Source of the DNA: a virus
Direction: 5' to 3' (one strand)
Virus record (IMG/VR): IMGVR_UViG_3300037264_002228
Location: 34,444-98,443 of that record
Length of the DNA: 64,000 nucleotides
Shown: positions 1,292 to 63,089 of the stretch, piece after piece
Layout: each line of letters opens with the position of its first letter
Position numbering within the stretch: the stretch's first letter is position 1
The notes under the pieces: model-generated
What the model was told of the DNA's origin: nothing
Database searches by the model: none
Seen by the model: only the letters and a program-made list of their open reading frames with translations
Translations under genes and position numbers: made by a program

Positions 1292-2518
1292 ATGGGCGAA
1301 CCTATACGTACACATAAGCCAATAGTTGAAATTTCAATAGATGGTGGCTCAGACATTGGTGCGAATTTTACAAAATTTGAATGGGCTAGTTTTAATAATG
1401 GTGGATATATTATTAAAGCTAAAATTTTTGATCCATATTTTAATATATTAAAGAATTTAGCTACTAAAGGTTATTTAAAAGATGGTAGACAAAAAGAAAC
1501 AGAAGTAAAATTTAGAATTAAATGGTCATCTGGTAAAGAAACTCAAAACCGCACAGCATTCATGACATCGTTAAGTGCGCATGGTGTTAATGAATCTGGT
1601 GAAATTGAATTTATAGCCATAGATCCACCAAGTTTTTACTTAAATGAAGGTACTGCTGATGGCAAAGCATATAAGGGTAATGTAAGTTCTGTTATCAAAC
1701 AAGTTATAAATGAGTATGCACCGAATGTGTCTCTTGAAGTAACAGAAACAGATGATAACAAAGAGAATATTTGGTATATGATGCGTCAGGATCCAAAGAC
1801 GTTTATACGATCAATGCTTGATTGGTCTGCTAGCATAACACCTAAGAAAACGCATTGGATTGTTGCTAGTAATGATAAAAAATTAATTATCAAAGAACAA
1901 GATGAGATTAAAGTAGAAGATTTCGGTGTTTATCATTTAAATCGTAATGGTCAAACAGCTAAGGATGTAAAATTATATGAAGTATTGGCTGACAATTTTA
2001 TAAGCCCGCTACAAACTAAACTCATTACTTCTGGTATATCGGCCATTTCTGGCGAATATCTTGATAAAATCACTGATGCAGAAGAAAATAAAGTTTTTGT
2101 TAAAGATGAAAACACAAGTAGTAAAGTAAATGTGAATGTCCAGCCAACGCAGGGCTTTAAAAAACCAGACAAGAAATGGGCCACTAGTGTAAAATCTATC
2201 CCTGAGCATAGCGCTGGTGACCTTGGTATACCATATAGTAAATATATTGATGGAAGAGCACGCGGCATATTCATGAACATGCTTAATCTTGTCATGCGCA
2301 TGCGTTTGCGAGTAATAGGCGACTTTATGTTCGATGATAGCAGTAAAATTGGAGTTGCAAAATGCAATATTAGCTGGAAAGATATAGAAGGAGAACCATA
2401 TTTCCTTGGAGGGAATTGGTTAATTTACGGCTTTCATCATATAGTATCTGTACAAGATTGGGACACAGACCTTTATTTGGCTCGTCTCGATCATGATGCG
2501 TCGGCTAAGAAGGTATAA
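1292..2518 (+). CDS. baseplate hub / tail protein (gp27/GpD-like)
   Basis: 408 aa, directly before tape measure gene; YKGNVSSVIKQV and C-terminal GNWLIYGFHHIV resemble contractile-tail hub proteins. Confidence 0.6.
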   Translation: MGEPIRTHKPIVEISIDGGSDIGANFTKFEWASFNNGGYIIKAKIFDPYFNILKNLATKGYLKDGRQKETEVKFRIKWSSGKETQNRTAFMTSLSAHGVNESGEIEFIAIDPPSFYLNEGTADGKAYKGNVSSVIKQVINEYAPNVSLEVTETDDNKENIWYMMRQDPKTFIRSMLDWSASITPKKTHWIVASNDKKLIIKEQDEIKVEDFGVYHLNRNGQTAKDVKLYEVLADNFISPLQTKLITSGISAISGEYLDKITDAEENKVFVKDENTSSKVNVNVQPTQGFKKPDKKWATSVKSIPEHSAGDLGIPYSKYIDGRARGIFMNMLNLVMRMRLRVIGDFMFDDSSKIGVAKCNISWKDIEGEPYFLGGNWLIYGFHHIVSVQDWDTDLYLARLDHDASAKKV

Positions 2519-41972: not shown

Positions 41973-42745
41973 ATAAATTGTTATTTATTGGTGGCCCATG
42001 TGTCATAGAATCAGAACAACATGCTATGAGGCATGCATCAGCCATAAAAGATATATGTACAAAATTAGACATAGATTTTATTTATAAAAGTTCCTATGAT
42101 AAAGCTAATAGGACGTCTGGCGAAACTTATCGAGGCCCAGGTTTAATTGATGGTTTATACATATTGAATAAAATTAAACATGAAATTGGCGTTAAGATAT
42201 TGACTGATGTCCATTCTGTTGATGAAGTGAAGTCTGCTGCGGTTGTAGTTGACGTGCTTCAAATTCCAGCATTGTTATGTCGTCAGACAGATTTAGTATT
42301 GGCTGCTTCGAGTACTCACAAAATAGTAAACATCAAAAAGGGCCAATTCATGGACCCATTGGCTATGAGGCATATATTAAAGAAAGCCTTATCAACTGGT
42401 AATAATAATATATGGTTATGTGAGCGTGGTACTACGTTTGGTTATAATAATTTAGTAGTTGATATGCGTTCAATACCAATAATGAAATCTTTTGGTTGCA
42501 AAGTAATAATGGATGCTGGACATGCAGTGCAACAGCCCGGTGGTCTTGGTAATGCATCCGGTGGGATGCGAGATATGATTCCGACGATGGCTCGTTGTGG
42601 TATCGCGGCTGGTGCTGATGGGTTGTTTATTGAAGTCCATGAAAATCCAGATGCTGGCCTAAGTGATGGACCGAATATGCTTAGATTAGATGATCTTGAA
42701 TCATTACTACGCCAAGCAAAAGAAATGAAAAATTTGCTCCTGTAG
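41969..42745 (+). CDS. kdsA: KDO 8-phosphate synthase
   Basis: GPCVIES, KSSYDKANRTS, TDVH, QIPA.LCRQT, KKGQF, ERG..FGYNNLVVD, H.VQQPG, SDG. Confidence 0.95.
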   Translation: MNKLLFIGGPCVIESEQHAMRHASAIKDICTKLDIDFIYKSSYDKANRTSGETYRGPGLIDGLYILNKIKHEIGVKILTDVHSVDEVKSAAVVVDVLQIPALLCRQTDLVLAASSTHKIVNIKKGQFMDPLAMRHILKKALSTGNNNIWLCERGTTFGYNNLVVDMRSIPIMKSFGCKVIMDAGHAVQQPGGLGNASGGMRDMIPTMARCGIAAGADGLFIEVHENPDAGLSDGPNMLRLDDLESLLRQAKEMKNLLL

Positions 42746-42809
42746 CCTATCGGTGAGGCAGGGATCTCTAAAATCTCATAGGTGAGTTCGACTCTCATCA
42801 GGAGCGCCA
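42736..42809 (+). tRNA. amber suppressor tRNA, anticodon CUA
   Basis: Acceptor GCTCCTG/CAGGAGC + G73 + CCA; D stem GCCT/AGGC with GG; anticodon stem GGGAT/ATCTC around loop CT-CTA-AA; T arm GTGAG-TTCGACT-CTCAT. Confidence 0.9.
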
Positions 42810-52699: not shown

Positions 52700-53007
52700 T
52701 TTGTATCTTCATATTCATCTTCATTTTTTAAGAACATCTTTGTTGTAGTTAAAGCATCATCAATTGCTGTTGCTAATATTTTCATGCTATTTGGATCTGC
52801 TAAGTCGATTTTTTCCGGAAAATGTCTGCCATTTTTGATTGTCAATATGGGTCCATCTCCTTCAACAATACACCAACGTGCTCCTATTTGTATTCTATCG
52901 TCTCTAATCCAGATCTGGTTTTGATTGTCTATTGTCGTCACTGTGACATGATTGATACCAATCATTTGCAATGCATATTTTACGTATAATACAATTGTTT
53001 TGTCCAT
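52696..53007 (-). CDS. small paralog-family protein
   Basis: IDLADPNSMKILATAI. Confidence 0.55.
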   Translation of the reverse strand: MDKTIVLYVKYALQMIGINHVTVTTIDNQNQIWIRDDRIQIGARWCIVEGDGPILTIKNGRHFPEKIDLADPNSMKILATAIDDALTTTKMFLKNEDEYEDTN

Positions 53008-53072
53008 ATTGTATTTTAGTTATGGAAATGGTTAACATAAGTTTACTAATATATTAAGAGTAAATAGACGTA

Positions 53073-53243
53073 ATGCCAAAAACAAATAGATCAGTAGTAC
53101 AAATTCCGCTTGCATGTTGTAGGTGTGGGACTAAACAAGCTATTTGGCGATTAGATGGTAGACTTAAAGATAAGAACCACCCCAAGCATATGTGGTGTCA
53201 TATCTGCAATAAAAAAACTGCACATTTTCAAATTTATGATTAG
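53073..53243 (+). CDS. 56 aa zinc-ribbon protein resembling ribosomal protein L33 (not in ORF track)
   Basis: Translated by hand: MPKTNRSVVQIPLACCRCGTKQAIWRLDGRLKDKNHPKHMWCHICNKKTAHFQIYD. Confidence 0.55.
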   Translation: MPKTNRSVVQIPLACCRCGTKQAIWRLDGRLKDKNHPKHMWCHICNKKTAHFQIYD

Positions 53244-53265
53244 AACCAACACGAAGTGATGTAAT

Positions 53266-53748
53266 ATGAATTTTAATGGCGCAAATTGTACTATATGTAA
53301 AACAAATAAGGCGGCATATTATATAGTTGATATATTGCATGGTAACAAAACTGAAAGTTACTTATGTGAACCATGTTTAAAGAAATTCGATACTAGTGGG
53401 TTTTTAAAATTGTTTGCACTTCCTATAAGCCAAATTGGAATGCTAACAGGATTTTCTAATAATGACATTAAATGCGAATCATGCGGTATGACTTTATCTA
53501 AATTTGTGCAGACTAAAAGAGTTGGGTGTGCAAAGGATTACGATTTGTTTAATTTAGGACCATTGTTAGAATCGCATCATAAAGCATCTAAGCATGTTGG
53601 CAAAGTTCCAGCAAACCAAGTAACTCAAGAAACTATATCCAATAGAGTCGACCATCTTAATAAATCCATGGCTGAAGCAATAAAATCAGAAAAATATGAA
53701 GAAGCTGCTAGAATTCGTGATGAAATAAAAAACCTAAAAGGAAATTAA
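53266..53748 (+). CDS. mcsA: McsA-like protein-arginine kinase activator
   Basis: CTIC..LCEPC..CESCGMT..F....RVGC..DY..F..H.GKVP, C-terminal UVR motif EKYEEAARIRDEI. Confidence 0.85.
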   Translation: MNFNGANCTICKTNKAAYYIVDILHGNKTESYLCEPCLKKFDTSGFLKLFALPISQIGMLTGFSNNDIKCESCGMTLSKFVQTKRVGCAKDYDLFNLGPLLESHHKASKHVGKVPANQVTQETISNRVDHLNKSMAEAIKSEKYEEAARIRDEIKNLKGN

Positions 53749-53749
53749 T

Positions 53750-53998
53750 ATGCGTATGCCATTTGGTAAACACAAAGGTCTTGAAATTTCTGCTTTGCCA
53801 GAAGATTACTTGAAGTGGCTTGTTCAAACCATAGATCCAGGTGACGTAAAAGATGAAGCAAAACGAGTACTCGATAGTGGTGAATTTAAGCAAGAACAGA
53901 AATATAGCGACTTAGAAGCAGAAGCAAATCGTATATTAGGCGAGAAACCAGTTGACTTATTAAAACGCGGTTATGGCAAGCCTAGGAGACGACTATGA
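53750..53998 (+). CDS. DUF3820 / ExoX C-terminal-like small protein
   Basis: MPFGKHKG..I..LP.DYL.W. Confidence 0.75.
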   Translation: MRMPFGKHKGLEISALPEDYLKWLVQTIDPGDVKDEAKRVLDSGEFKQEQKYSDLEAEANRILGEKPVDLLKRGYGKPRRRL

Positions 53999-54939
53999 AA
54001 GATTTAGACTACGTCAAGCATATAATTTCAATTGAAGCTAATGCTGTAGCCCAGTTGTTATCACATGCAGATGCAGAATTCGAAAGAGCTGTAATTTTGT
54101 GTCGTCAATGTCAGGGCAACATTATCGTATCTGGTGTTGGCAAGAGCGGATTTATAGCACAAAAGATGGCAGCTACTTATGCTAGTATTGGTATCAAATC
54201 TTGGTGGATTCATCCAAATGATGCTGACCATGGCGATATTGGAAGAGTCACCGATAAAGACGTTTGCATATTGTTTTCGAATAGTGGCGAGACTAAAGAA
54301 ATTATAAATTTAGCTAACCAAATTAAATCAAGAAACGCCAAAATTATATCAATAGTCGGTAAGAAAAATTCGACATTAGGTTTATTGTCTGATGTGGTTG
54401 TGTACATTGGCGAATGTGTAGAAGCTGGTTTAATAAAAGCCATACCAACATCATCGACAACTGTCTCATTGGTTGCGGCGGATGCAATAGCTCTTGCTAC
54501 TGTCGGTACAAATCTCAGCAATGACGAATTTCAGAAGAACCACAAAGGTGGATCTATTGGAGTTAAATTGTCAAAAGTCAATGTATTTATGAGATCTGGT
54601 AGTGACTGTGTTATTGTTTCTATTCATAATAGACTATTAGATGTGATACTGGCTATGACTGGTGCTCACACTGGGGCCGCAATAGTAGTTGATCAAGATC
54701 ATGTTGTTGGTATTATTACTGATGGTGATTTAAGAAGATTTGTATGTAATCATGACATCACTTCAGCATGGGCCGTTAACTGTATGACCAAAAATCCGAT
54801 TACAATGGTGTCTAGTAAAACCATAGAAGAAGCAATGGAAGTTTTTAGGCATCACTCTATTGGTGATATACCAATTGTTAATGAAATGTTAGTGCCAATT
54901 GGTATGTTGAGTCTGAAGGATCTGGCAAAACTGATTTAA
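53995..54939 (+). CDS. kdsD: arabinose-5-phosphate isomerase (SIS + CBS)
   Basis: GVGKSG.IA.K.AAT, HGD.G, S.SGET.E, PT.STT, H.GG..G, GIITDGDLRR. Confidence 0.92.
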   Translation: MKDLDYVKHIISIEANAVAQLLSHADAEFERAVILCRQCQGNIIVSGVGKSGFIAQKMAATYASIGIKSWWIHPNDADHGDIGRVTDKDVCILFSNSGETKEIINLANQIKSRNAKIISIVGKKNSTLGLLSDVVVYIGECVEAGLIKAIPTSSTTVSLVAADAIALATVGTNLSNDEFQKNHKGGSIGVKLSKVNVFMRSGSDCVIVSIHNRLLDVILAMTGAHTGAAIVVDQDHVVGIITDGDLRRFVCNHDITSAWAVNCMTKNPITMVSSKTIEEAMEVFRHHSIGDIPIVNEMLVPIGMLSLKDLAKLI

Positions 54940-55349
54940 TAATTGTCGTATTTTCCAGGGTTTTGATCAATATCTAACATTGCACGTTTGTACTCATTTA
55001 GTTCTTGCGAAGCATCTATACCAACTAAACTCAATAATTGTTCCATTTTATTGGCATCCATCTTTGCATGGATTGGTCTTTGTCCAGCCTTTGTTGCGTC
55101 GTCCATTATTTCTAAATAGTTTTCATTATCAAATTCGTCATCGTCATGGAGCCCACTATAACTGCGTAATTGTGGGCGATTGACTGTTGCTATTGGTGAA
55201 TCAAACTCATAATTGAAGTCATAATCCAATACAGCACCAGTATCTGATACAAACAATATGTATCCTTTAGTGACACCATAACTTGGTAGTGGATACCAGC
55301 CAGACTCAGGCCACTCTGGCATTGTTCTTGCTATTTCGTCTGGTGTCAT
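54936..55349 (-). CDS. hypothetical protein (GLHDDDEF motif)
   Basis: ATG 55349 just after the upstream stop. Confidence 0.55.
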   Translation of the reverse strand: MTPDEIARTMPEWPESGWYPLPSYGVTKGYILFVSDTGAVLDYDFNYEFDSPIATVNRPQLRSYSGLHDDDEFDNENYLEIMDDATKAGQRPIHAKMDANKMEQLLSLVGIDASQELNEYKRAMLDIDQNPGKYDNY

Positions 55350-55350
55350 T

Positions 55351-55848
55351 TTATGGAATTGGCTTATAGGCAACCAACACTAATAGATCTGTAACAAGCA
55401 TACCAGCGCCAAAATCTGTCTTCTTTAATGATAATACATCACCAGCCGCTAGGTCAGTAGTACCCAATGTTTTAAGTACGGCATCAAATGCTGTAAAGCT
55501 TTCAGTTGCTCCACTAAAAGTCGTTAGAACAGTTGTACCAGCACCACTAGCGCCTTTGTTAACTAAATCGAGCGTAGTATAATTAATGCCATTGGCAGTT
55601 AAATTAGCACCATTTACTAACCACATAGCAGTCACGCGGCAAGCATATGGTGCCACAAACACTGGTTTTTCTGATGCTGTGCCAGCAGCAACAGTACCGA
55701 ATAGAGCGCTTTGTGATAACAATGACTGCATTGCTAGTGAATGATTAGTTAAAGATTCTAGTTGATTTTCTTGGTTGTTATGGTGAGACGCTACAACTCT
55801 ATCAACATTATCTTGTACTGTCGTTTTCGTATATGAAGCTAAGCCCAT
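55351..55848 (-). CDS. probable virion structural / decoration protein
   Basis: Ala/Thr/Gly-rich beta-type sequence; AGGAG RBS and CAAATATA motif upstream on the minus strand. Confidence 0.55.
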   Translation of the reverse strand: MGLASYTKTTVQDNVDRVVASHHNNQENQLESLTNHSLAMQSLLSQSALFGTVAAGTASEKPVFVAPYACRVTAMWLVNGANLTANGINYTTLDLVNKGASGAGTTVLTTFSGATESFTAFDAVLKTLGTTDLAAGDVLSLKKTDFGAGMLVTDLLVLVAYKPIP

Positions 55849-55874
55849 GTAAATCTCCTATCAACTAGTTTATG

Positions 55875-55892
55875 TATATTTGCTGTATTTAA
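55875..55892. promoter_or_regulatory. back-to-back putative phage promoters (CAAATATA on minus, GTATTTAA on plus)
   Basis: Both recurrent upstream motifs sit in the 49-nt gap between divergent genes. Confidence 0.5.
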
Positions 55893-55897
55893 TTAGT

Positions 55898-57286
55898 ATG
55901 AATAATGTATACATTAGCCCATTTACAGATCGGTATGCCTCAAAAGAAATGCTATATAATTTCTCGGCTGATAAAAAATTTAAGACCTGGAGACAGTTGT
56001 GGATTGCATTGGCAGAGAAAGAGAAAGAATTAGGATTACCCATAACTGATGTACAGATCGCTGAATTAAAAGATCATCAAAATGATATAAATTATGATGT
56101 CGCTAGACAATATGAAGAAAAGCTTAAACATGATGTGATGGCACATATTAAAGCATATGGCGATCAATGTCCAAATGCTAAAGGCATTATTCATTTAGGT
56201 GCTACTAGTGCATATGTTGTAGACAATACCGATCTAATTCTGATTAAAGATGGATATGACATAATTTTAAATAAACTAAGTGATATTATCAGTAAACTGA
56301 CCTTATTTGCTAAACAATATGCTGATCTGCCGACAGTTGCATATACACATTTTCAACCAGCTCAATTTACTACGGTAGGTAAACGCGCATGTTTGTGGAT
56401 ACATGATTTATTGCTTGATTTTGACGACATAACGCACAGATATACTAATTTGAAATTTCTTGGCGTTAAAGGAACTACTGGTACTCAGGCTAGTTTTATG
56501 GCCTTGTTCGACAATGATCAGCACAAAGTGACAAAATTAGATCGTTCTATTGCGTATAATATGGGATTTAATGGCACATACTCAGTAAGTGGACAGACCT
56601 ATTCTAGGAAAATAGATGCTCAAGTTCATTCGGTGTTAAGTGGTATTGCAGAATCTGCGCATAAATTTTCTAATGATTTAAGATTACTTCAACATCTTGG
56701 TGAAATTCAAGAGCCATTTGGCAAGGATCAGGTTGGATCAAGTGCTATGGCATATAAGCGCAACCCAATGAAGAGCGAGCGAATAGCGTCGTTATCACGA
56801 TTTGTATTGTCGTTGCAATCAAATGCTGATTTCACCGCTGCATCTCAGTGGTTTGAACGCACATTAGACGACTCTGCAGGCAAGAGGATAGCGTTGCCTG
56901 AAGCTTTCTTGGCTGTCGATTCTATATTACAAATATATCTTAATGTAGTGTCGGGACTAGTTGTCAATAAAGACGTAATTGATAATAATGTTAGGAAAGA
57001 ATTGCCATCAATTGTAACAGAAAATGTGTTGATGGCTGCTGTAAAAATTGGTGGCGACCGTCAAGAATTACATGAACGTATAAGACAATATATGCTTAGT
57101 GGTAAAGATCTTATTCAATGTTTGAAAAATGATGATGTTTTTAGTAAAGTTTCTAATTCTATAAAAGAAGATCCAATCAATTATGTTGGACGCTCGCAGG
57201 AACAAGTTGATGAGTTTATTGACAATGAGGTAAAATCAAGATTAGAGGTTATTTCTAATACTTGTGGATGTCCAGGCATCATATAG
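55898..57286 (+). CDS. purB: adenylosuccinate lyase
   Basis: RYAS.EM, HDVMAH, IHLGATS, THFQPAQ, GSSAM.YKRNPM.SE, QWFERTLDDSA. Confidence 0.95.
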   Translation: MNNVYISPFTDRYASKEMLYNFSADKKFKTWRQLWIALAEKEKELGLPITDVQIAELKDHQNDINYDVARQYEEKLKHDVMAHIKAYGDQCPNAKGIIHLGATSAYVVDNTDLILIKDGYDIILNKLSDIISKLTLFAKQYADLPTVAYTHFQPAQFTTVGKRACLWIHDLLLDFDDITHRYTNLKFLGVKGTTGTQASFMALFDNDQHKVTKLDRSIAYNMGFNGTYSVSGQTYSRKIDAQVHSVLSGIAESAHKFSNDLRLLQHLGEIQEPFGKDQVGSSAMAYKRNPMKSERIASLSRFVLSLQSNADFTAASQWFERTLDDSAGKRIALPEAFLAVDSILQIYLNVVSGLVVNKDVIDNNVRKELPSIVTENVLMAAVKIGGDRQELHERIRQYMLSGKDLIQCLKNDDVFSKVSNSIKEDPINYVGRSQEQVDEFIDNEVKSRLEVISNTCGCPGII

Positions 57287-57360
57287 ATTGTCGCAAGATA
57301 AATAATTTTGTGCAAAAATACTTACAAGCGTATTTAAAGAACATAATGGTTACAAAGATA

Positions 57361-57796
57361 TCGTCAAATCTGTGGTCTAATGAACTCGTGTCCCTAGCGG
57401 ATACGCGGTTTAGTGGGTTGCATAATACACAGCCACAACCCACCCTCGCCGCCGCCTATAAGCGCGGTAGCGAGATCGGAGGTTTGACGGGGTAAGCTTT
57501 AAAGAAAAATTGAGATTTTAATGAGCCCCGCGCTTTCGAAGGAAGGTTGCGGGGCTCAAGCTTTATTTGGGATATGCGGGTCCCGTCGATTGGTAGCCAT
57601 CAGGTTCGCCTGGGTGCTGATCGTACTAGTGGCGTGAACAATTGTGTTCACAACAATTTGACAATTAGGTTAGAAAAGAGCAAAAGACGTAGGGAGGGCC
57701 AAGGAGTCCACCTTGGCCCTCCCTTGCGTAGGCTTAAGAAATATTTGTAATTAGCATCGGAAGCGAAAGCTAATATGCTTTGGTCGTAAGACCAAT
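57361..57796 (+). ncRNA. unidentified multi-hairpin RNA upstream of the tRNA array
   Basis: GC-rich island with a closed multibranch domain (57361-57490) and successive hairpins, some with UUCG/GNRA loops. Confidence 0.55.
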
Positions 57797-57799
57797 CAT

Positions 57800-57875
57800 G
57801 GGTAGGCATGTACCAAGGGGGCGACACTGCCTTGCAAGCAGAGTGTGGTGAGTTCGATTCTCATCCTATCCACCA
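57800..57875 (+). tRNA. tRNA-Ala(UGC)
   Basis: GGGTAGG/CCTATCC with G3:U70, loop CTTGCAA, TTCGA, CCA. Confidence 0.9.
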
Positions 57876-57946
57876 AAATTGTTATTAGCGCCGCCATTTG
57901 AGGCGCGTGGCTAATGACGTATACTTGAATGCTAAGCATTCATTAT

Positions 57947-58030
57947 GGAAGTGCTCGAAAGTGGGATTTCATGCGGACTGTAAATCCGTTGCCAAATGGC
58001 TAAGTGGTTCGATTCCTCACACTTCCACCA
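57947..58030 (+). tRNA. tRNA-Tyr(GUA), atypical D and T arms
   Basis: GGAAGTG/CACTTCC, loop CTGTAAA, long variable arm, CCA. Confidence 0.8.
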
Positions 58031-58038
58031 TAAAATTA

Positions 58039-58115
58039 CAGGCACAGGGTCAGATAGCGGGCCGCCTGCCTCGGAAGCAGGAGTCAGCGCAGTGCAAGTC
58101 TGCGGTGCCTGACCA
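58039..58115 (+). tRNA. tRNA-Pro(CGG)
   Basis: CAGGCAC/GTGCCTG, loop CTCGGAA, T loop TGCAAGT, CCA. Confidence 0.8.
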
Positions 58116-58116
58116 T

Positions 58117-58194
58117 CAGGGTGTAGCTCAGATAGTGATGAGCGCATGTTTTGGATACATGAGGTCGCTGGTGCGAGTCCAGTCACCCTGACCA
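58117..58194 (+). tRNA. tRNA-Pro(UGG)
   Basis: CAGGGTG/CACCCTG, loop TTTGGAT, T loop TGCGAGT, CCA. Confidence 0.85.
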
Positions 58195-58207
58195 TAAAAA
58201 TTAATAT

Positions 58208-58284
58208 CCGGGTGTAGCGTAGTCTGGTAACGCGTCTGCTTTGGGAGCAGAAGATCGCAGGTTCAAATCCTGTCACCTGGACCA
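58208..58284 (+). tRNA. tRNA-Pro(UGG), second copy
   Basis: CCGGGTG/CACCTGG, loop TTTGGGA, TTCAA, CCA. Confidence 0.92.
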
Positions 58285-58285
58285 C

Positions 58286-58360
58286 TTCGGGGTCAGCTAA
58301 TTGGTAAGCTGCTTGTCTGTTAAACAAGTCATCGGGGTTCAAGTCCCTGCCCCGGAGCCA
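58286..58360 (+). tRNA. tRNA-Asn(GUU)
   Basis: TTCGGGG/CCCCGGA, loop CTGTTAA, G73, CCA. Confidence 0.9.
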
Positions 58361-58370
58361 AAATTATCTT

Positions 58371-58454
58371 GCCCCTGTGGTGGAACAGCAGACACGATGG
58401 TCTTAGAAGCCATTGCCAATAGGCGTGGAGGTGCGACTCCTCTCAGGGGCACCA
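58371..58454 (+). tRNA. tRNA-Leu(UAG)
   Basis: GCCCCTG/CAGGGGC, loop CTTAGAA, variable arm, T loop TGCGACT, CCA. Confidence 0.88.
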
Positions 58455-58465
58455 ATAAATAAATT

Positions 58466-58774
58466 ATGGATTTTTGTGAAATAATTTCTGAATGGCTTAA
58501 AACCAATTGCACAAATTGGCAAGTATGGTATGGGGCTTTTATTGAAATTGGATTTAAAGACAACATGAAAAGATGGACATGTATGTCACACATATATCTT
58601 ACACAAAATGAAATTCATGTATACGAGAGAATTAGACGAATTAAACAGAATGCTGTTTTAGTTCACTCACCAAATTATGCACCAGATTATTTAAAATATT
58701 CTCTCAATGCTTGTGATCCAAATTTGTTTAGTAAATTAAAAGAAATTTTAACAGAATACGAAAAGGTCCTATAG
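58466..58774 (+). CDS. small paralog-family protein inside the tRNA array
   Basis: MDFCEIISEWL ... LNACDPNLFSKL; AT-rich island between tRNAs. Confidence 0.6.
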   Translation: MDFCEIISEWLKTNCTNWQVWYGAFIEIGFKDNMKRWTCMSHIYLTQNEIHVYERIRRIKQNAVLVHSPNYAPDYLKYSLNACDPNLFSKLKEILTEYEKVL

Positions 58775-58839
58775 TGTACCGGCGCGCACAACATCCTGTC
58801 ACGATGTAAGAACGGGTTCAACTCCCGTTAGGATCGCCA
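58765..58839 (+). tRNA. tRNA-Asp(GUC)
   Basis: GGTCCTA/TAGGATC, loop CTGTCAC, G73, CCA. Confidence 0.9.
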
Positions 58840-58840
58840 T

Positions 58841-58914
58841 TCTCCGGTCGTCTATTGGTAGGACGTCGCGCTTTGAACGCGGAAAGGTTGGTTCGATTCC
58901 AACTCGGAGAACCA
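58841..58914 (+). tRNA. tRNA-Gln(UUG)
   Basis: TCTCCGG/TCGGAGA (U1-A72), loop CTTTGAA, CCA. Confidence 0.9.
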
Positions 58915-58917
58915 AAT

Positions 58918-58995
58918 TGCCAAGCACTCTGTATCGGTACGGAGACGAGTCTCTGAAACTCGGCGCTGCTGGTTCGACTCCAGCCTTGGCAGCCA
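58918..58995 (+). tRNA. tRNA-Gln(CUG)
   Basis: TGCCAAG/CTTGGCA, loop CTCTGAA, CCA. Confidence 0.88.
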
Positions 58996-58996
58996 T

Positions 58997-59073
58997 GCTC
59001 TCGTGGTGCAACTGGCAGACACACTCGTCTCAGAAGCGAGGCTTTGCGGGTTCGAATCCCGCCGAGAGCACCA
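58997..59073 (+). tRNA. tRNA-Leu(CAG) with short variable loop
   Basis: GCTCTCG/CGAGAGC, loop CTCAGAA, variable GCTTT only, A73, CCA. Confidence 0.88.
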
Positions 59074-59081
59074 AAATTTTT

Positions 59082-59164
59082 GCATCTGTGCTGGAATCGG
59101 TATACGGGGCGGTCCGAGAAGCCGCTGCAATAGCATGTGGGTTCGAGTCCCTCCAGATGCACCA
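59082..59164 (+). tRNA. tRNA-Leu(GAG), C33 variant
   Basis: GCATCTG/CAGATGC, loop CCGAGAA, variable arm, CCA. Confidence 0.82.
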
Positions 59165-59180
59165 AAAGTATTTCACTTCA

Positions 59181-59577
59181 GTAAAGGATGCGGACAATCG
59201 CGGTCATAAGTGATCGAGGAAAGTCCCGGCTCCAAAGAGTAAGATGGTCGCTAACGGCGGCACAGCGTAAGCTGATGGAAAGTGCCACAGAGACTATTCC
59301 TGCTCAAGTCAAGTGATTGTTGTTGGCGGCGTAGCTCATGATGCCTCGCGAAAGCAGGAGGCTAGAAGTAGAAGTCAACAATTTATTGTGAGCAGCTTGA
59401 TAAGAGTAAGGGTGAAAAGAGGTAAACCCCATCTGGAGCAAGGCTAAATAGGAACACTGGGCTACTCGCTCGATAAGTGTTCGGGTAAGCTGCTTGAGGG
59501 TACCAGCAATGGTATTCCCAGATAGATGATTGTCACCCATAATATGGGTACAAAACCGGGCTTATAGCATCCTTTAC
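59181..59577 (+). ncRNA. rnpB: RNase P RNA (bacterial type-A-like, lacking P13/P14)
   Basis: P1 GTAAAGGATGC/GCATCCTTTAC; GAGGAAAGTCCCGGC, AGTGCCACAGA, GGGTGAAA, GGTAAACCCC..GGAGCAAGG, GGGTAAGCTGCTTGAG, AGATAGATGATTGTC, ACAAAACCGGGCTTA in the canonical order. Confidence 0.95.
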
Positions 59578-59585
59578 AACTTGGA

Positions 59586-59627
59586 GTGGTTGGAGGGCTA
59601 ACGCAATGTTAGTCCCTCCAACCACCA
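59586..59627. terminator. strong hairpin between convergent transcripts
   Basis: GTGGTTGGAGGGCTAAC-GCAAT-GTTAGTCCCTCCAACCAC; no U tract on the plus strand. Confidence 0.45.
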
Positions 59628-59636
59628 TGACGGGGG

Positions 59637-60071
59637 CTAATTTTCTATTTTATTTGCAATATTTTGAATTGGGTTTGGCCCACTACAAGCAGACTGTAGG
59701 ATGTTTGTTATGTTGTCAATTAACTCATCGTCAGTCATCTGTGAATGCTCGTCATATAATTTACTAAATCTCTCTGATAGAAATGGTTTAATATCGTTTT
59801 CACCATTTGGATTTATTAGTTGTATAAACCATTTCTTTGTGGTAAAATGTTTAACAACATAACAAACAAATGGGTTTCGTCCTTTGTAACCAAATTCATC
59901 GTCGTCATGTAAACCAAATGATTGGTGGTCTTCATGTTCAATAGCGATACTTGCTTTATTAGTTCCTTTTAAATGTTTTAGATCAAGTGAACGATGTTCA
60001 ATAGGTTGTCCTGCATACCAATGTGTGTACATTAATTCTATCTTTAGACATTCTGGGATTTTTTGATTCAT
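59637..60071 (-). CDS. hypothetical protein (GLHDDDEF motif)
   Basis: 144 aa; shares motifs with the adjacent ORF. Confidence 0.6.
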   Translation of the reverse strand: MNQKIPECLKIELMYTHWYAGQPIEHRSLDLKHLKGTNKASIAIEHEDHQSFGLHDDDEFGYKGRNPFVCYVVKHFTTKKWFIQLINPNGENDIKPFLSERFSKLYDEHSQMTDDELIDNITNILQSACSGPNPIQNIANKIEN

Positions 60072-60078
60072 AAATTAA

Positions 60079-60534
60079 TCAATAATCAATTTTATTAGCA
60101 ATTTGTTGTATTTGGTTCGGTGGACACGAATTGTTTAAATAATCGACAATAGTTTGTTTAATGTTTGATGTAGATTTCTTATAAATTTTTTCTATTTCAT
60201 CTACCATTCTGTGATCTGTTTCGTTATATCGACCGCCGGTAATAACATCAAATAAAAACCAATAATCAAAAAAGACAGTCTGTTTTGTGACAAGTGGTTT
60301 CTTACTAAAATGTAATGTGATGCCAGAATTACGACCACTATTGCCAAAAGTATCGTCATCATGAAAACCAATATTTGTTATGTGATCATTATGGACGATT
60401 CTCATTGATATAATATCGATTGGACGTTCAGTATTATATGATGCATTGTCTAATATGTTGATGTCATTAGTAGTATCTACTATGTTTGTGCCATGTTTTC
60501 TAACAATTTTGATGCTGAAACAATTTGGGACCAT
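60079..60534 (-). CDS. hypothetical protein (GFHDDDTF motif)
   Basis: 151 aa; shares the HDDD motif and C-terminal IQxIANKI with its neighbour. Confidence 0.6.
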   Translation of the reverse strand: MVPNCFSIKIVRKHGTNIVDTTNDINILDNASYNTERPIDIISMRIVHNDHITNIGFHDDDTFGNSGRNSGITLHFSKKPLVTKQTVFFDYWFLFDVITGGRYNETDHRMVDEIEKIYKKSTSNIKQTIVDYLNNSCPPNQIQQIANKIDY

Positions 60535-60550
60535 AAAATATTTTCGACAC

Positions 60551-60624
60551 GCGGGTGTCGTTCAATGGTAGGACCCTAGTTTTCCAAACTAGAGATGTCG
60601 GTTCGATTCCGTCTACCCGCACCA
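60551..60624 (+). tRNA. tRNA-Gly(UCC)
   Basis: GCGGGTG/TACCCGC, loop TTTCCAA, A73, CCA. Confidence 0.9.
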
Positions 60625-60625
60625 A

Positions 60626-60702
60626 GCCCCTGTCCCGTAACTGGATAACGGCCTTGCCTACGAAGCAAGTAAATATAGGTTCGAATCCTATCAGGGGTAC
60701 CA
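60626..60702 (+). tRNA. tRNA-Arg(ACG)
   Basis: GCCCCTG/CAGGGGT, loop CTACGAA, GGATA in the D loop, CCA. Confidence 0.9.
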
Positions 60703-60732
60703 ACAGTATTTAATATTATAAGGAGATTTCTT

Positions 60733-60918
60733 ATGATGTCAACTACAGAACGGGCTAAGCGTAGCCGTGCTATGAAGGCGTTTCACGCTCGTCGTCGTGA
60801 AGCTAATGAAAGTCGGTCATACACTCTACGTGACTATTGGGAGTTCAGCGAGGAAGCTATTGCACATCGTGCGAAGCTCAGCCGCGCCATGAAGCGTTGG
60901 TGGCGTGCGAATCGCTAA
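60733..60918 (+). CDS. small Arg-rich protein with internal repeat
   Basis: AGGAG RBS; RAKRSRAMK / RAKLSRAMK duplication. Confidence 0.7.
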   Translation: MMSTTERAKRSRAMKAFHARRREANESRSYTLRDYWEFSEEAIAHRAKLSRAMKRWWRANR

Positions 60919-60930
60919 GTAGTATCAAAT

Positions 60931-61001
60931 AGGTCGTTGGTGTAATGGTAACATTGCTGCCTCCAAATCAGTAGATGAAGGTTCGATTCCTTCACGGCCT
61001 G
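60931..61001 (+). tRNA. tRNA-Trp(CCA), no encoded CCA end
   Basis: AGGTCGT/ACGGCCT, loop CTCCAAA, TTCGA, G73. Confidence 0.85.
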
Positions 61002-61018
61002 AATTTTTTAGGTGATTA

Positions 61019-62017
61019 ATGAAATTATTGGTTACAGGTGGTTGTGGTTTTATTGGCTCTAATTTCATTCGATACGTACTTGGAAATCGCGATTACAGCA
61101 TTGACAATCTAGATGCTTTAACATATGCTGGAAATCCAGATAATTTAAAAGACCTTAAAGAAGATCGGTATAAATTTTACCATACTTCAATTACCAATAA
61201 AATTATGGTTGATGATTTAGTAAGTGGTGTCGATGCTGTTGTAAATTTCGCCGCAGAAAGCCATGTTGATAGAAGCCTGTTTGGTCCAGAAGAATTCATA
61301 AACACGAATGTGCTGGGTGCTTCTTATGTTCTGGAATCTGTAAAAAAACACAAAAAACGTCTAGTGCATGTTTCAACAGACGAAGTTTATGGCTCAATTG
61401 AGACTGGCATGTTTAATGAGACAATGCCACTTCATCCAAATAATCCATATTCTGTTACCAAGGCATCAGCCGACATGATGATGAAAGTTTATTTTGATAC
61501 ATTTAAAACAGATGTTGTTGTCACTCGTAGCTCAAATAATTATGGTCCTTATCAATACCCAGAAAAATTCGTCCCATTAATCATCACGAATGCTTTAGAT
61601 AACAAGCCAGTACCAGTTTATGGCAAGGGAGATCAAATTAGAGATTGGCTACATGTTACAGATAATGTTAGAGGAATCTTGTTTGCTCTAGAACATGGTA
61701 AGGCTGGTGAAGTTTATAATCTCGGCGGTAGTAATGAGCGCACTAATTTTGAAATGGTAGAGACAATATTAAAATTAATGGACAAACCATTGTCTCTTAT
61801 ACGTTTTGTAGAAGATCGCCCAAATCATGATAGAAGATACGCCATTAATCGTTCTAAAGCATTCAAAGAATTGGCGTGGGAACCACTAATTGATTTGAAT
61901 ACAGGCATTAAGGTTGTAATAGATTGGTATAAAAATAATAGTACATGGATTAGTAACGTAAAATCTAATATAGAATTAAAGAAATATTATGAACGACAAT
62001 ACGGAAAAACGCAGTAA
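61019..62017 (+). CDS. rfbB: dTDP-glucose 4,6-dehydratase
   Basis: VTGG.GFIGSNF, D.LTYAGN, FAAESHVDRS, VSTDEVYG, PYS.TKA, SNNYGPYQ.PEK, RDWLHV.D. Confidence 0.95.
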   Translation: MKLLVTGGCGFIGSNFIRYVLGNRDYSIDNLDALTYAGNPDNLKDLKEDRYKFYHTSITNKIMVDDLVSGVDAVVNFAAESHVDRSLFGPEEFINTNVLGASYVLESVKKHKKRLVHVSTDEVYGSIETGMFNETMPLHPNNPYSVTKASADMMMKVYFDTFKTDVVVTRSSNNYGPYQYPEKFVPLIITNALDNKPVPVYGKGDQIRDWLHVTDNVRGILFALEHGKAGEVYNLGGSNERTNFEMVETILKLMDKPLSLIRFVEDRPNHDRRYAINRSKAFKELAWEPLIDLNTGIKVVIDWYKNNSTWISNVKSNIELKKYYERQYGKTQ

Positions 62018-62133
62018 AAGAGAACGTAGAAATAGACGCAATAAGCGTGAAAAGTCTGTTATGGATTGGTTGATTGGGTCTCTGAAAAGTGTCGATGGAC
62101 GGTTATCTGATAGAAGAAAGAAAGAACGCAGGG

Positions 62134-62361
62134 ATGCTAGATAAATATCGACTATATTTACAACATTTACAAGAAACAGTACACGAACGCGCAAGACAAT
62201 TGAGACCTGAAATACAACGTCTTGCAGAGGGCGGGTATAATAATACTGAATTAGACCAAAAACTTATTAGGTTTATTGCATCAACCATACTTGCCGATTT
62301 AGCACTAGAAGAAGGCGATATTCTTGGTGAGGGATTACCTAAAGATGACGATCCAAAATAA
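62134..62361 (+). CDS. hypothetical protein
   Basis: ATG 62134 within ORF 62089..62361. Confidence 0.45.
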   Translation: MLDKYRLYLQHLQETVHERARQLRPEIQRLAEGGYNNTELDQKLIRFIASTILADLALEEGDILGEGLPKDDDPK

Positions 62362-62370
62362 AAATATTAT

Positions 62371-62562
62371 ATGATGACAGGCACATGTAACGATTGCAGA
62401 CTAGGTGCGCACGAGAATTGTAAATTGGTAATACCATCTGATAGTGGGATGTTGTTTTGCAGCTGTGAATGCGGCGGCATGTCACTTGGAGCACCTACAG
62501 GGTCGATGCCAAAAGTTCCAGACGAAATTAAAAAAGAATTCCCAGAATTACCACCGCAATAA
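62371..62562 (+). CDS. small Cys-rich protein
   Basis: CNDC..H..C..CSCEC. Confidence 0.5.
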   Translation: MMTGTCNDCRLGAHENCKLVIPSDSGMLFCSCECGGMSLGAPTGSMPKVPDEIKKEFPELPPQ

Positions 62563-62576
62563 CCAAAAATACTAAC

Positions 62577-63089
62577 ATGAAGCTATCGTGTTTGTTTCTA
62601 GAGTCAAAGAAAATACTTAAACATGTTGGTATATTCGTTAAACTACCAGAAAATCTAGCTAGTAAATTTAAACGCAATAGTGAAGATACTAGTAAACCAC
62701 ATATTACAGCACTCTATCTTGGTGATAAACATTATTCAGACGAAGACTCAATAGTAGCTGCGGCCTATGAAATAGCCAAAACAACTAGTTCATTTAATAT
62801 AAAATTTGGTGAATTAGGATATTTTGAACACGACGATCAGACAGTAGCGTTTACAAAAGTTGATTCAGATGGGTTGCGTAAACTACGAACTGCATTGATT
62901 CGTGCAATGAAAAAACATGCAGTAAAATGGGAAGATAAATGGGGGAAGTTTAATCCGCATATCACATTGGATTATTTAAAATGTGGTGACACATGGGAAG
63001 AAAATGTGCCATCTGGGTCATGGACTTGCAAAGAATTAGAAGTATGGGGATTTGATAAGAAACATATTATCAAATTCGAGAATTCATAG
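62577..63089 (+). CDS. 2H phosphoesterase (LigT/Acb1 superfamily)
   Basis: Two HxT motifs: KPHITALY and NPHITLDY. Confidence 0.88.
   Translation: MKLSCLFLESKKILKHVGIFVKLPENLASKFKRNSEDTSKPHITALYLGDKHYSDEDSIVAAAYEIAKTTSSFNIKFGELGYFEHDDQTVAFTKVDSDGLRKLRTALIRAMKKHAVKWEDKWGKFNPHITLDYLKCGDTWEENVPSGSWTCKELEVWGFDKKHIIKFENS

Follow-up and report, generated by a model that had tools for sequence, protein, structure and literature searches.

A predicted phage gene for a bacterial type A RNase P RNA that lies beside a tRNA array and lacks P13/P14

The 64,000-nucleotide stretch of viral DNA analyzed here (the window) contains, as judged from its covariance-model match and helix map, a phage gene for the catalytic RNA of a bacterial-type RNase P. 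The gene is 399 nt long, lies on the plus strand at 59182–59580 and encodes a variant of bacterial type A. RNase P RNA, the ribozyme by which newly made tRNAs are trimmed, is regarded as part of the cellular core, and tRNA processing in classic phages such as T4 depends on the enzyme of the host. In an Rfam covariance-model scan of the whole window, the match to RF00010 (RNaseP_bact_a) at 59182–59580 was the sole strong match other than those to tRNAs; it scored 229.4 bits in cmscan against a gathering score of 100 (E = 2.9e-73) and covers model positions 1–367. Over the same interval the archaeal model RF00373 (67.1 bits, cut-off 84) and the type B model RF00011 (79.4 bits, cut-off 97) both stayed below their cut-offs, so the window RNA is type A in kind. 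The initial annotation had placed an RNase P ribozyme at 59181–59577 and proposed comparing it with bacterial A, bacterial B and archaeal models; the ribozyme is borne out with slightly refined ends, and that comparison exceeded the cut-off on type A only.

To describe the structure, each helix was mapped by coordinate and each pair was checked by script. All 118 mapped pairs (P1–P12 and P15–P19) are canonical: P1 (11 of 11), P2 (7 of 7), P3 (6 of 6), P4 (8 of 8, with a bulged U at 59224), P5 (4 of 4), the P6 pseudoknot (4 of 4), P7 (5 of 5), P8 (5 of 5), P9 (4 of 4, with the GNRA loop GUAA as L9), P10 (2 of 2), P11 (5 of 5), P12 (29 of 29), P15 (4 of 4), P16 (6 of 6), P17 (4 of 4), P18 (59498–59517, plus strand; 8 of 8, with the GNRA loop GCAA as L18) and a P19-like hairpin (59535–59549, plus strand; 6 of 6) located between P2 and the 3′ strand of P4. 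The conserved regions CR-I to CR-V are all present, as had been noted from the sequence. In the CR-II/CR-III module, ACAGAGAC and GUAAGGGUGAAA align to the consensus and the P9, P10 and P11 pairs are all intact; in CR-V the conserved G of ACAGAA is an A, a change that also occurs in the phage copy at locus L062. L15 carries GGGU at 59483–59486 (plus strand), aligned to the consensus cCGGGUA, and the GGU of type A enzymes at this position is the motif that pairs with the 3′-CCA of pre-tRNA.

The same pair map upheld a compensatory swap in P4 to which the initial annotation had drawn attention. The 5′ strand, AAAGUCCCGG (AAG[U]CCCGG; 59221–59229, plus strand), lies within CR-I and pairs at eight of eight positions with the 3′ strand, CCGGGCUU (59556–59563, plus strand), within CR-V. 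P4 thus has CCCGG in its 5′ strand and CCGGG in its 3′ strand, against CCGGG and CCCGG, respectively, in the family consensus; this is a fully compensated change from G-C to C-G, and of the 15 conventional homologues in a MAFFT alignment, 14 differ from the window RNA on both sides of this pair. The exact CR-I motif carrying the swap occurs on no other IMG/VR contig. Among the 185,579 species genomes of GTDB it had 11 matches, only one of them in a real RNase P RNA (from a Planctomycetaceae MAG), and JGI metagenomes gave four matches, again with a single real RNase P RNA. Both real matches lack the compensating 3′ change and keep the ordinary 3′ strand; they contain a mismatch or a shifted register instead of the swap. 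Among the motif matches from GTDB, IMG/VR and the JGI metagenomes, the compensated swap therefore looks unique to the window RNA.

Compensation extends well beyond P4. When the helices of the window RNA were compared with 15 conventional type A homologues (from Planctomycetota, two other bacteria and six P13/P14-bearing phage copies), the MAFFT alignment gave 387 changes on both sides of a pair, 99 on one side and 112 broken cells, the broken cells being concentrated in P1, P3 and P16, where the alignment is poor. Core identity to the nearest sequences is 60–70%. A blastn search for a donor against 401, 401, 401 and 301 genomes of four phyla returned conserved-core stretches only, at 73–80% identity, and no close donor was found among these approximately 1,500 bacterial genomes. 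Such heavy divergence with every pair intact argues for a functional structured RNA and not a pseudogene.

The major departure from the conventional form is found in the S-domain. CR-III (GGGUGAAA), a spacer of AGA and the 3′ strands of P11 and P10 (GGUAAACCCC) follow one another at 59410–59430 (plus strand), the site where P13/P14 would sit. The junction has the form GGGTGAAA plus AGA plus GGTAAACCCC, and 42 model positions are deleted there in the cmscan alignment. Since CR-III runs into the 3′ strand of P11 via AGA alone and these positions are deleted, P13 and P14 are absent, in agreement with the earlier reading of this junction. The P13/P14 stack is a type A hallmark of the S-domain (PMC1874661, PMC8457005). 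Because the window RNA does not have this stacked pair of helices, by which canonical type A RNAs are told, we file it as a type A variant and not as a canonical member; it shows every other type A membership feature that was tested. It also contains no P10.1, for which there is no room because the spacers between P10 and P11 are only AAA and AA.

P12, in turn, is extended to 113 nt (59299–59411, plus strand) and forms a single long hairpin; a long P12 had been proposed at about 59294–59409 (some 115 nt), and its length holds with these refined bounds. The arm is built of stem 1 (59299–59305/59404–59411, 6 bp), stem 2 (59308–59314/59395–59401, 7 bp), stem 3 (59319–59327/59374–59382, 9 bp), an internal loop of 4 × 12 nt and a tip hairpin (59343–59362) with a GAAA loop at 59350–59353. 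Its predicted fold (MFE −35.9 kcal/mol, z −1.9) is modestly more stable than those of shuffled sequences, and the long P12 is without covariation support because the window RNA has no close relative. No canonical K-turn was seen by eye in the internal loop. We considered P12 as a mobile insert or repeat and rejected this, as no second copy of its sequence occurs elsewhere in the window or in the fetched loci. The catalytic domain is conserved, as are those parts of the specificity domain that contact tRNA; the stabilizing P13/P14 stack was lost, and the 113-nt P12 arm with its GNRA tip may have taken over the bracing role of that stack.

The gene lies in a phage genome. The window makes up the final 64 kb of an IMG/VR virus record of 98,443 bp, whose completeness CheckV puts at 23%; this implies a genome of about 400 kb. 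Among the genes of the window are those for ribonucleotide reductase, a helicase, the large terminase, the portal, a baseplate hub and the major head protein. For the last of these, IMG/VR contains 170 relatives, of which 80 were kept (74–88% identical); the related records include some of 354–408 kb that are 98–100% complete by CheckV, two of them with direct terminal repeats. As a pointer to the host, the Atlas neighbours of kdsA are ambiguous, comprising Thermodesulfobacteriota, Bacteroidota and viruses. By blastn, positions 52740–55886 and 60551–62722 are collinear with the closest large relative (G001). Between them lies a lineage-specific segment of 4.66 kb (55886–60551), in place of which G001 has about 760 bp. 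This segment consists of an adenylosuccinate-lyase-like gene, a structured RNA, a tRNA array, the RNase P RNA and two paralogous minus-strand ORFs.

Phage synteny on both flanks makes a misassembly with host DNA unlikely. An assembly chimera or host contamination, that is, a bacterial RNase P segment joined to a phage contig, might be suspected because the record comes from a metagenome assembly, the gene is 4.4 kb from the contig end and its GC content is 48% against a phage background of 34–40%. However, the tRNAs of the array share the raised GC of the ribozyme, and tRNA-Pro (58205–58284), inside the 4.66-kb segment, matches tRNAs of two relatives. Downstream genes have PHROG matches, and no searched bacterial genome or metagenome contig (GTDB and JGI motif matches) has this RNA. 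Given these data together with the collinear flanks, we regard a chimera as extremely improbable.

RF00010 is absent from all 24 larger related phage records searched, four of which are 98–100% complete. Thus the gene is not a trait of this phage family but was acquired by the lineage of the window, and the family can dispense with it. These observations could also be explained if a cellular rnpB had been captured during tRNA-array shuffling and were now a passenger or decaying, with no role in infection: among 25 related phage records the gene is in this lineage only, and it sits in a variable segment, tRNA arrays being fluid between related phages. We consider such a capture quite unlikely, since no helix pair is broken, the RNA has moved far from every sampled cellular RNA through compensated changes, quite the reverse of neutral decay, and the same class of gene recurs in the tRNA arrays of unrelated huge phages.

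The immediate surroundings of the gene are dominated by tRNAs. An upstream array of nine called genes (57947–59164, plus strand; ARAGORN and Rfam) ends with tRNA-Leu(GAG), and the ribozyme starts 17 nt after this last tRNA on the same strand. All nine tRNAs of the upstream array encode CCA (as do 12 of the 13 called tRNAs overall), and some are 1 nt apart; a single nucleotide separates the members of the pairs Pro-Asn, Asp-Gln and Gly-Arg. On the other side, genes for tRNA-Gly, tRNA-Arg and tRNA-Trp (60551–61002, plus strand; ARAGORN and Rfam) follow, of which tRNA-Gly is syntenic with G001. Just 3′ of the ribozyme, a 17-bp hairpin followed by a T-rich tract (59586–59625) faces the convergent minus-strand ORFs. 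The hairpin has a ΔG of −31.8 kcal/mol (z −4.2), a stability that no sequence among 200 shuffles matched; with its T-rich tract it is likely a two-way terminator.

Several further features of this region deserve mention. Two tRNA-sized gaps in the array (58031–58116 and 58915–58996, plus strand) end in CCA just before the next tRNA and have no ARAGORN or Rfam call; both are possible non-canonical tRNA genes. At the head of the array, 57800–57875 (plus strand, 76 nt) has a weak match to the tmRNA model (16.4 bits, E = 9e-4) and adjoins a structured region at 57330–57796; it is probably a tRNA-like unit. Further away, 42736–42809 (plus strand) is a tRNA with the anticodon CUA, an amber suppressor labelled Pyl by ARAGORN; with the standard code, the long ORFs of this genome are intact. 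Directly downstream of the tRNA/RNase P region, and partly conserved in G001, is a gene of the 2H phosphoesterase/LigT-like 2′-5′ RNA ligase family (62577–63089, plus strand; PF13563, E = 1.5e-17). The two minus-strand ORFs (59637–60071 and 60079–60534) encode acidic paralogues that have in common the motifs HDDDxFG..GRN and IANKI; neither has a Pfam or PHROG match or a homologue in five related phage genomes. We considered them as candidates for an RnpA-like protein partner and rejected them, as they are acidic and have no Pfam or PHROG match.

Indeed, a search for the gene of the protein subunit (rnpA, PF00825) came up empty both in the 98-kb record and in five further phage records with an RNase P RNA, of which three are at least 90% complete. 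This makes host RnpA the probable partner, and the low completeness of the window's own record (23%) leaves room for a phage-encoded one. We think it probable that the RNA is an active catalytic subunit that is co-transcribed with the CCA-encoding, packed tRNAs and works with host RnpA. The ribozyme would be transcribed together with the array whose last tRNA ends 17 nt before it, be released by processing and assemble with host RnpA. The enzyme would then cut the 5′ leaders of the phage's own closely packed, CCA-encoding tRNA precursors; where two precursors are 1 nt apart, an RNase P cut at the downstream 5′ end would nearly complete the upstream 3′ end. Extra or lasting RNase P activity of this kind could keep phage tRNA maturation going during infection. 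The roles put forward in the initial annotation, in which the ribozyme would mature atypical phage tRNAs or stand in for a host enzyme that has been shut off, presumably with host RnpA or a phage protein, are plausible.

The missing rnpA also bears on a different idea, namely that the RNA is a decoy or sponge that mainly binds host RnpA or another factor (a defence nuclease or a regulator) and does not serve catalysis, for without a phage rnpA the RNA, if it binds such a protein at all, has to compete for that of the host. In contrast to what this predicts, the RNA has retained its catalytic-core nucleotides and the substrate-binding L15 as well as the protein-side regions, and a sponge would have no need of an intact P4, L15 and S-domain T-loop module. 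A decoy is accordingly very unlikely in our judgment.

RNase P RNA was described in the initial annotation as rarely seen in phages. This agrees with GenBank, where blastn with the window RNA and with a consensus-like phage copy as queries retrieved only a handful of metagenomic or prophage-like phage records, but not with IMG/VR. A scan of IMG/VR with the CR-I motif gave 66 contigs, of which about 18, apart from the window's own record, carry an RNase P RNA inside tRNA arrays; many of these contigs are 100–463 kb long, a few loci come from short contigs and some lie beside a tmRNA gene. At three other phage loci (L057, L062 and L016) a full tmRNA gene is found beside the RNase P RNA. By their major head proteins the carrier phages are mostly unrelated to the window phage. 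The window gene belongs with them in an informal phage-borne class, having an RF00010-type RNA, tRNAs on both sides, hallmark genes and phage synteny on both flanks.

Roughly half of the phage copies lack P13/P14, with a spacing from CR-III to CR-IV of 17–25 nt versus 66–68 nt. P13/P14 are present at L030, L044, L048, L059 and L064, and the further phage loci compared were L014, L024, L057, L062, L005, L021, L186 and L227. The architecture that had been called unusual is therefore real but not unique, as copies without P13/P14 occur both in other phages and in small-genome bacteria (below). A search of IMG/VR for the junction pattern GGGTGAAA-N(1-8)-GGTAAACCCC gave four matches, three by chance and one at L186. 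The RNase P-like RNA at L186 (approximately 1330–1850, minus strand, of a 146-kb IMG/VR contig) is without P13/P14, its P4 is unusual (GUCCACGC/ACGUGGCUUA), its P12 is short and a large insert separates P5 from P10; in the tree it forms a very long branch. Between the closely related RNAs of L044 (a 369-kb phage contig) and L059 (114 kb), P18 differs by a compensated change, GCAUGG..CAUGC versus GCGUGG..CACGC, a hint of structural selection within a phage lineage.

The recurrence of P13/P14 loss in separate branches of the phage copies raises the question of whether the remodelled S-domain shifts substrate choice toward non-canonical tRNAs or other phage RNAs that are poor substrates for the host enzyme. 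The uncalled tRNA-sized, CCA-ending gaps of the array would suit such a specialized enzyme, as would the unrelated phage copy L227 (153-kb contig), in which P13/P14 are likewise lost and the P12 region, about 123 nt long, has no sequence likeness to P12 of the window RNA. Yet the elements that touch tRNA (the CR-II/CR-III module, P9–P11 and the L15 GGU) are conventional here, cellular RNAs without P13/P14 serve ordinary tRNA sets, and P13/P14 brace the S-domain without contacting the substrate (PMC8457005). We therefore hold specialization to be unlikely. More speculatively, and with considerable doubt on our part, phage RNase P RNAs in general may have been selected for a streamlined virus-specific enzyme, with P13/P14 lost independently in several phage lineages, the GAAA-tipped P12 arm of the window RNA replacing the brace, and altered stability, substrate range (odd tRNAs, for example) or a lesser dependence on host protein as the outcome. 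If so, a streamlined phage RNase P would be a viral take-over device for tRNA maturation and not simply a spare part.

A full-text literature search found no paper on an RNase P RNA gene in any virus, so the phage RNase P RNA class appears to be undescribed. In their survey of huge phages, Al-Shayeb et al. 2020 mention tmRNA but say nothing of RNase P (PMC7162821), and the paper on a tool for metagenomic rnpB never mentions phages or viruses (PMC7191817). A virus-encoded RNase P ribozyme should be of interest to RNase P and phage specialists alike. The viral reach into the translation apparatus takes in tRNAs, tmRNA, synthetases and ribosomal proteins; if a virus encodes its own catalytic subunit, that reach extends to a ribozyme. 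It raises the question of whether a viral RNA subunit can recruit the host protein subunit during infection. If the reading of the S-domain given above is correct, these RNAs would furthermore be natural, independently evolved minimal S-domain variants with which to probe the roles of P13/P14 and P12 in folding and substrate choice.

The cellular RNAs closest in architecture to the window RNA come from a class of bacteria with small genomes (0.6–1.8 Mb), in which a type A RNA without P13/P14 was the single rnpB match in 63 of 71 genomes; such an architecture can thus serve a cell. The class is represented by loci L195–L224, among which L216 (genome G511, unpublished) carries no claim. In the RNAs of this class that were read, CR-III runs straight into the 3′ strand of P11, and the junction at L205, GGGUGAAAAGAGGAAAACC, is nearly the same as that of the window RNA. 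Core identity between this class and the window RNA is 45–54%, however, and the class forms a separate, well-supported branch. These bacterial RNAs score 38–130 bits on RF00010, and 44 of the 63 matches lie below the gathering score, so that they would escape standard annotation. A MAG titled 'uncultured Gammaproteobacteria' (genome G440, locus L156) belongs to the same class, for which all 71 sampled genomes measure 0.6–1.8 Mb.

In a maximum-likelihood tree, which was built from 246 core columns with few phyla sampled and names no donor, the window RNA groups with conventional type A RNAs and the P13/P14-bearing phage copies (support 100/99), apart from the other phage copies that lack P13/P14 and from the small-genome class. 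From this placement and the low identity, the loss of P13/P14 looks independent in the window RNA.

Other cellular lineages offer more distant parallels. Archaeal RNase P RNAs depend on four or five proteins. In archaeal type A RNAs the S-domain consists of P7–P12 without P13/P14 or P10.1, and P18 is missing as well (PMC4919922). This reduced S-domain topology is common to the archaeal RNAs (RF00373) and the window RNA, but the latter keeps P18 and a bacterial L15 and, at the score given above, falls short of the archaeal cut-off. Type B RNAs contain P10.1, P5.1 and P15.1, lack P6, P16 and P17, and make a tertiary contact through the P12 tetraloop. Types B and C (RF00011; Bacillus, Thermomicrobium) have no P13/P14 and have P10.1 in its place (PMC2858038). 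The window RNA has in common with them the missing P13/P14; unlike type B, it is without P10.1, keeps P6, P16 and P17 and, again, stays below the cut-off of the type B model.

The fullest likeness is to the canonical type A RNAs, such as E. coli M1 RNA (rnpB) and the P RNA of Thermotoga maritima, with which the window RNA has in common P1–P5, the P6 pseudoknot, P15–P18, the GGU of L15, the P7–P12 core, CR-II/CR-III and the GNRA loops L9 and L18. It differs from them in being without P13/P14 and in having a 113-nt P12 and one swapped P4 pair, and it differs from cellular rnpB in that it has no rnpA nearby, is encoded by a virus and lies inside a tRNA array. Taken together, these comparisons make the window RNA a structurally distinct member of a recurring class and not a unique kind.
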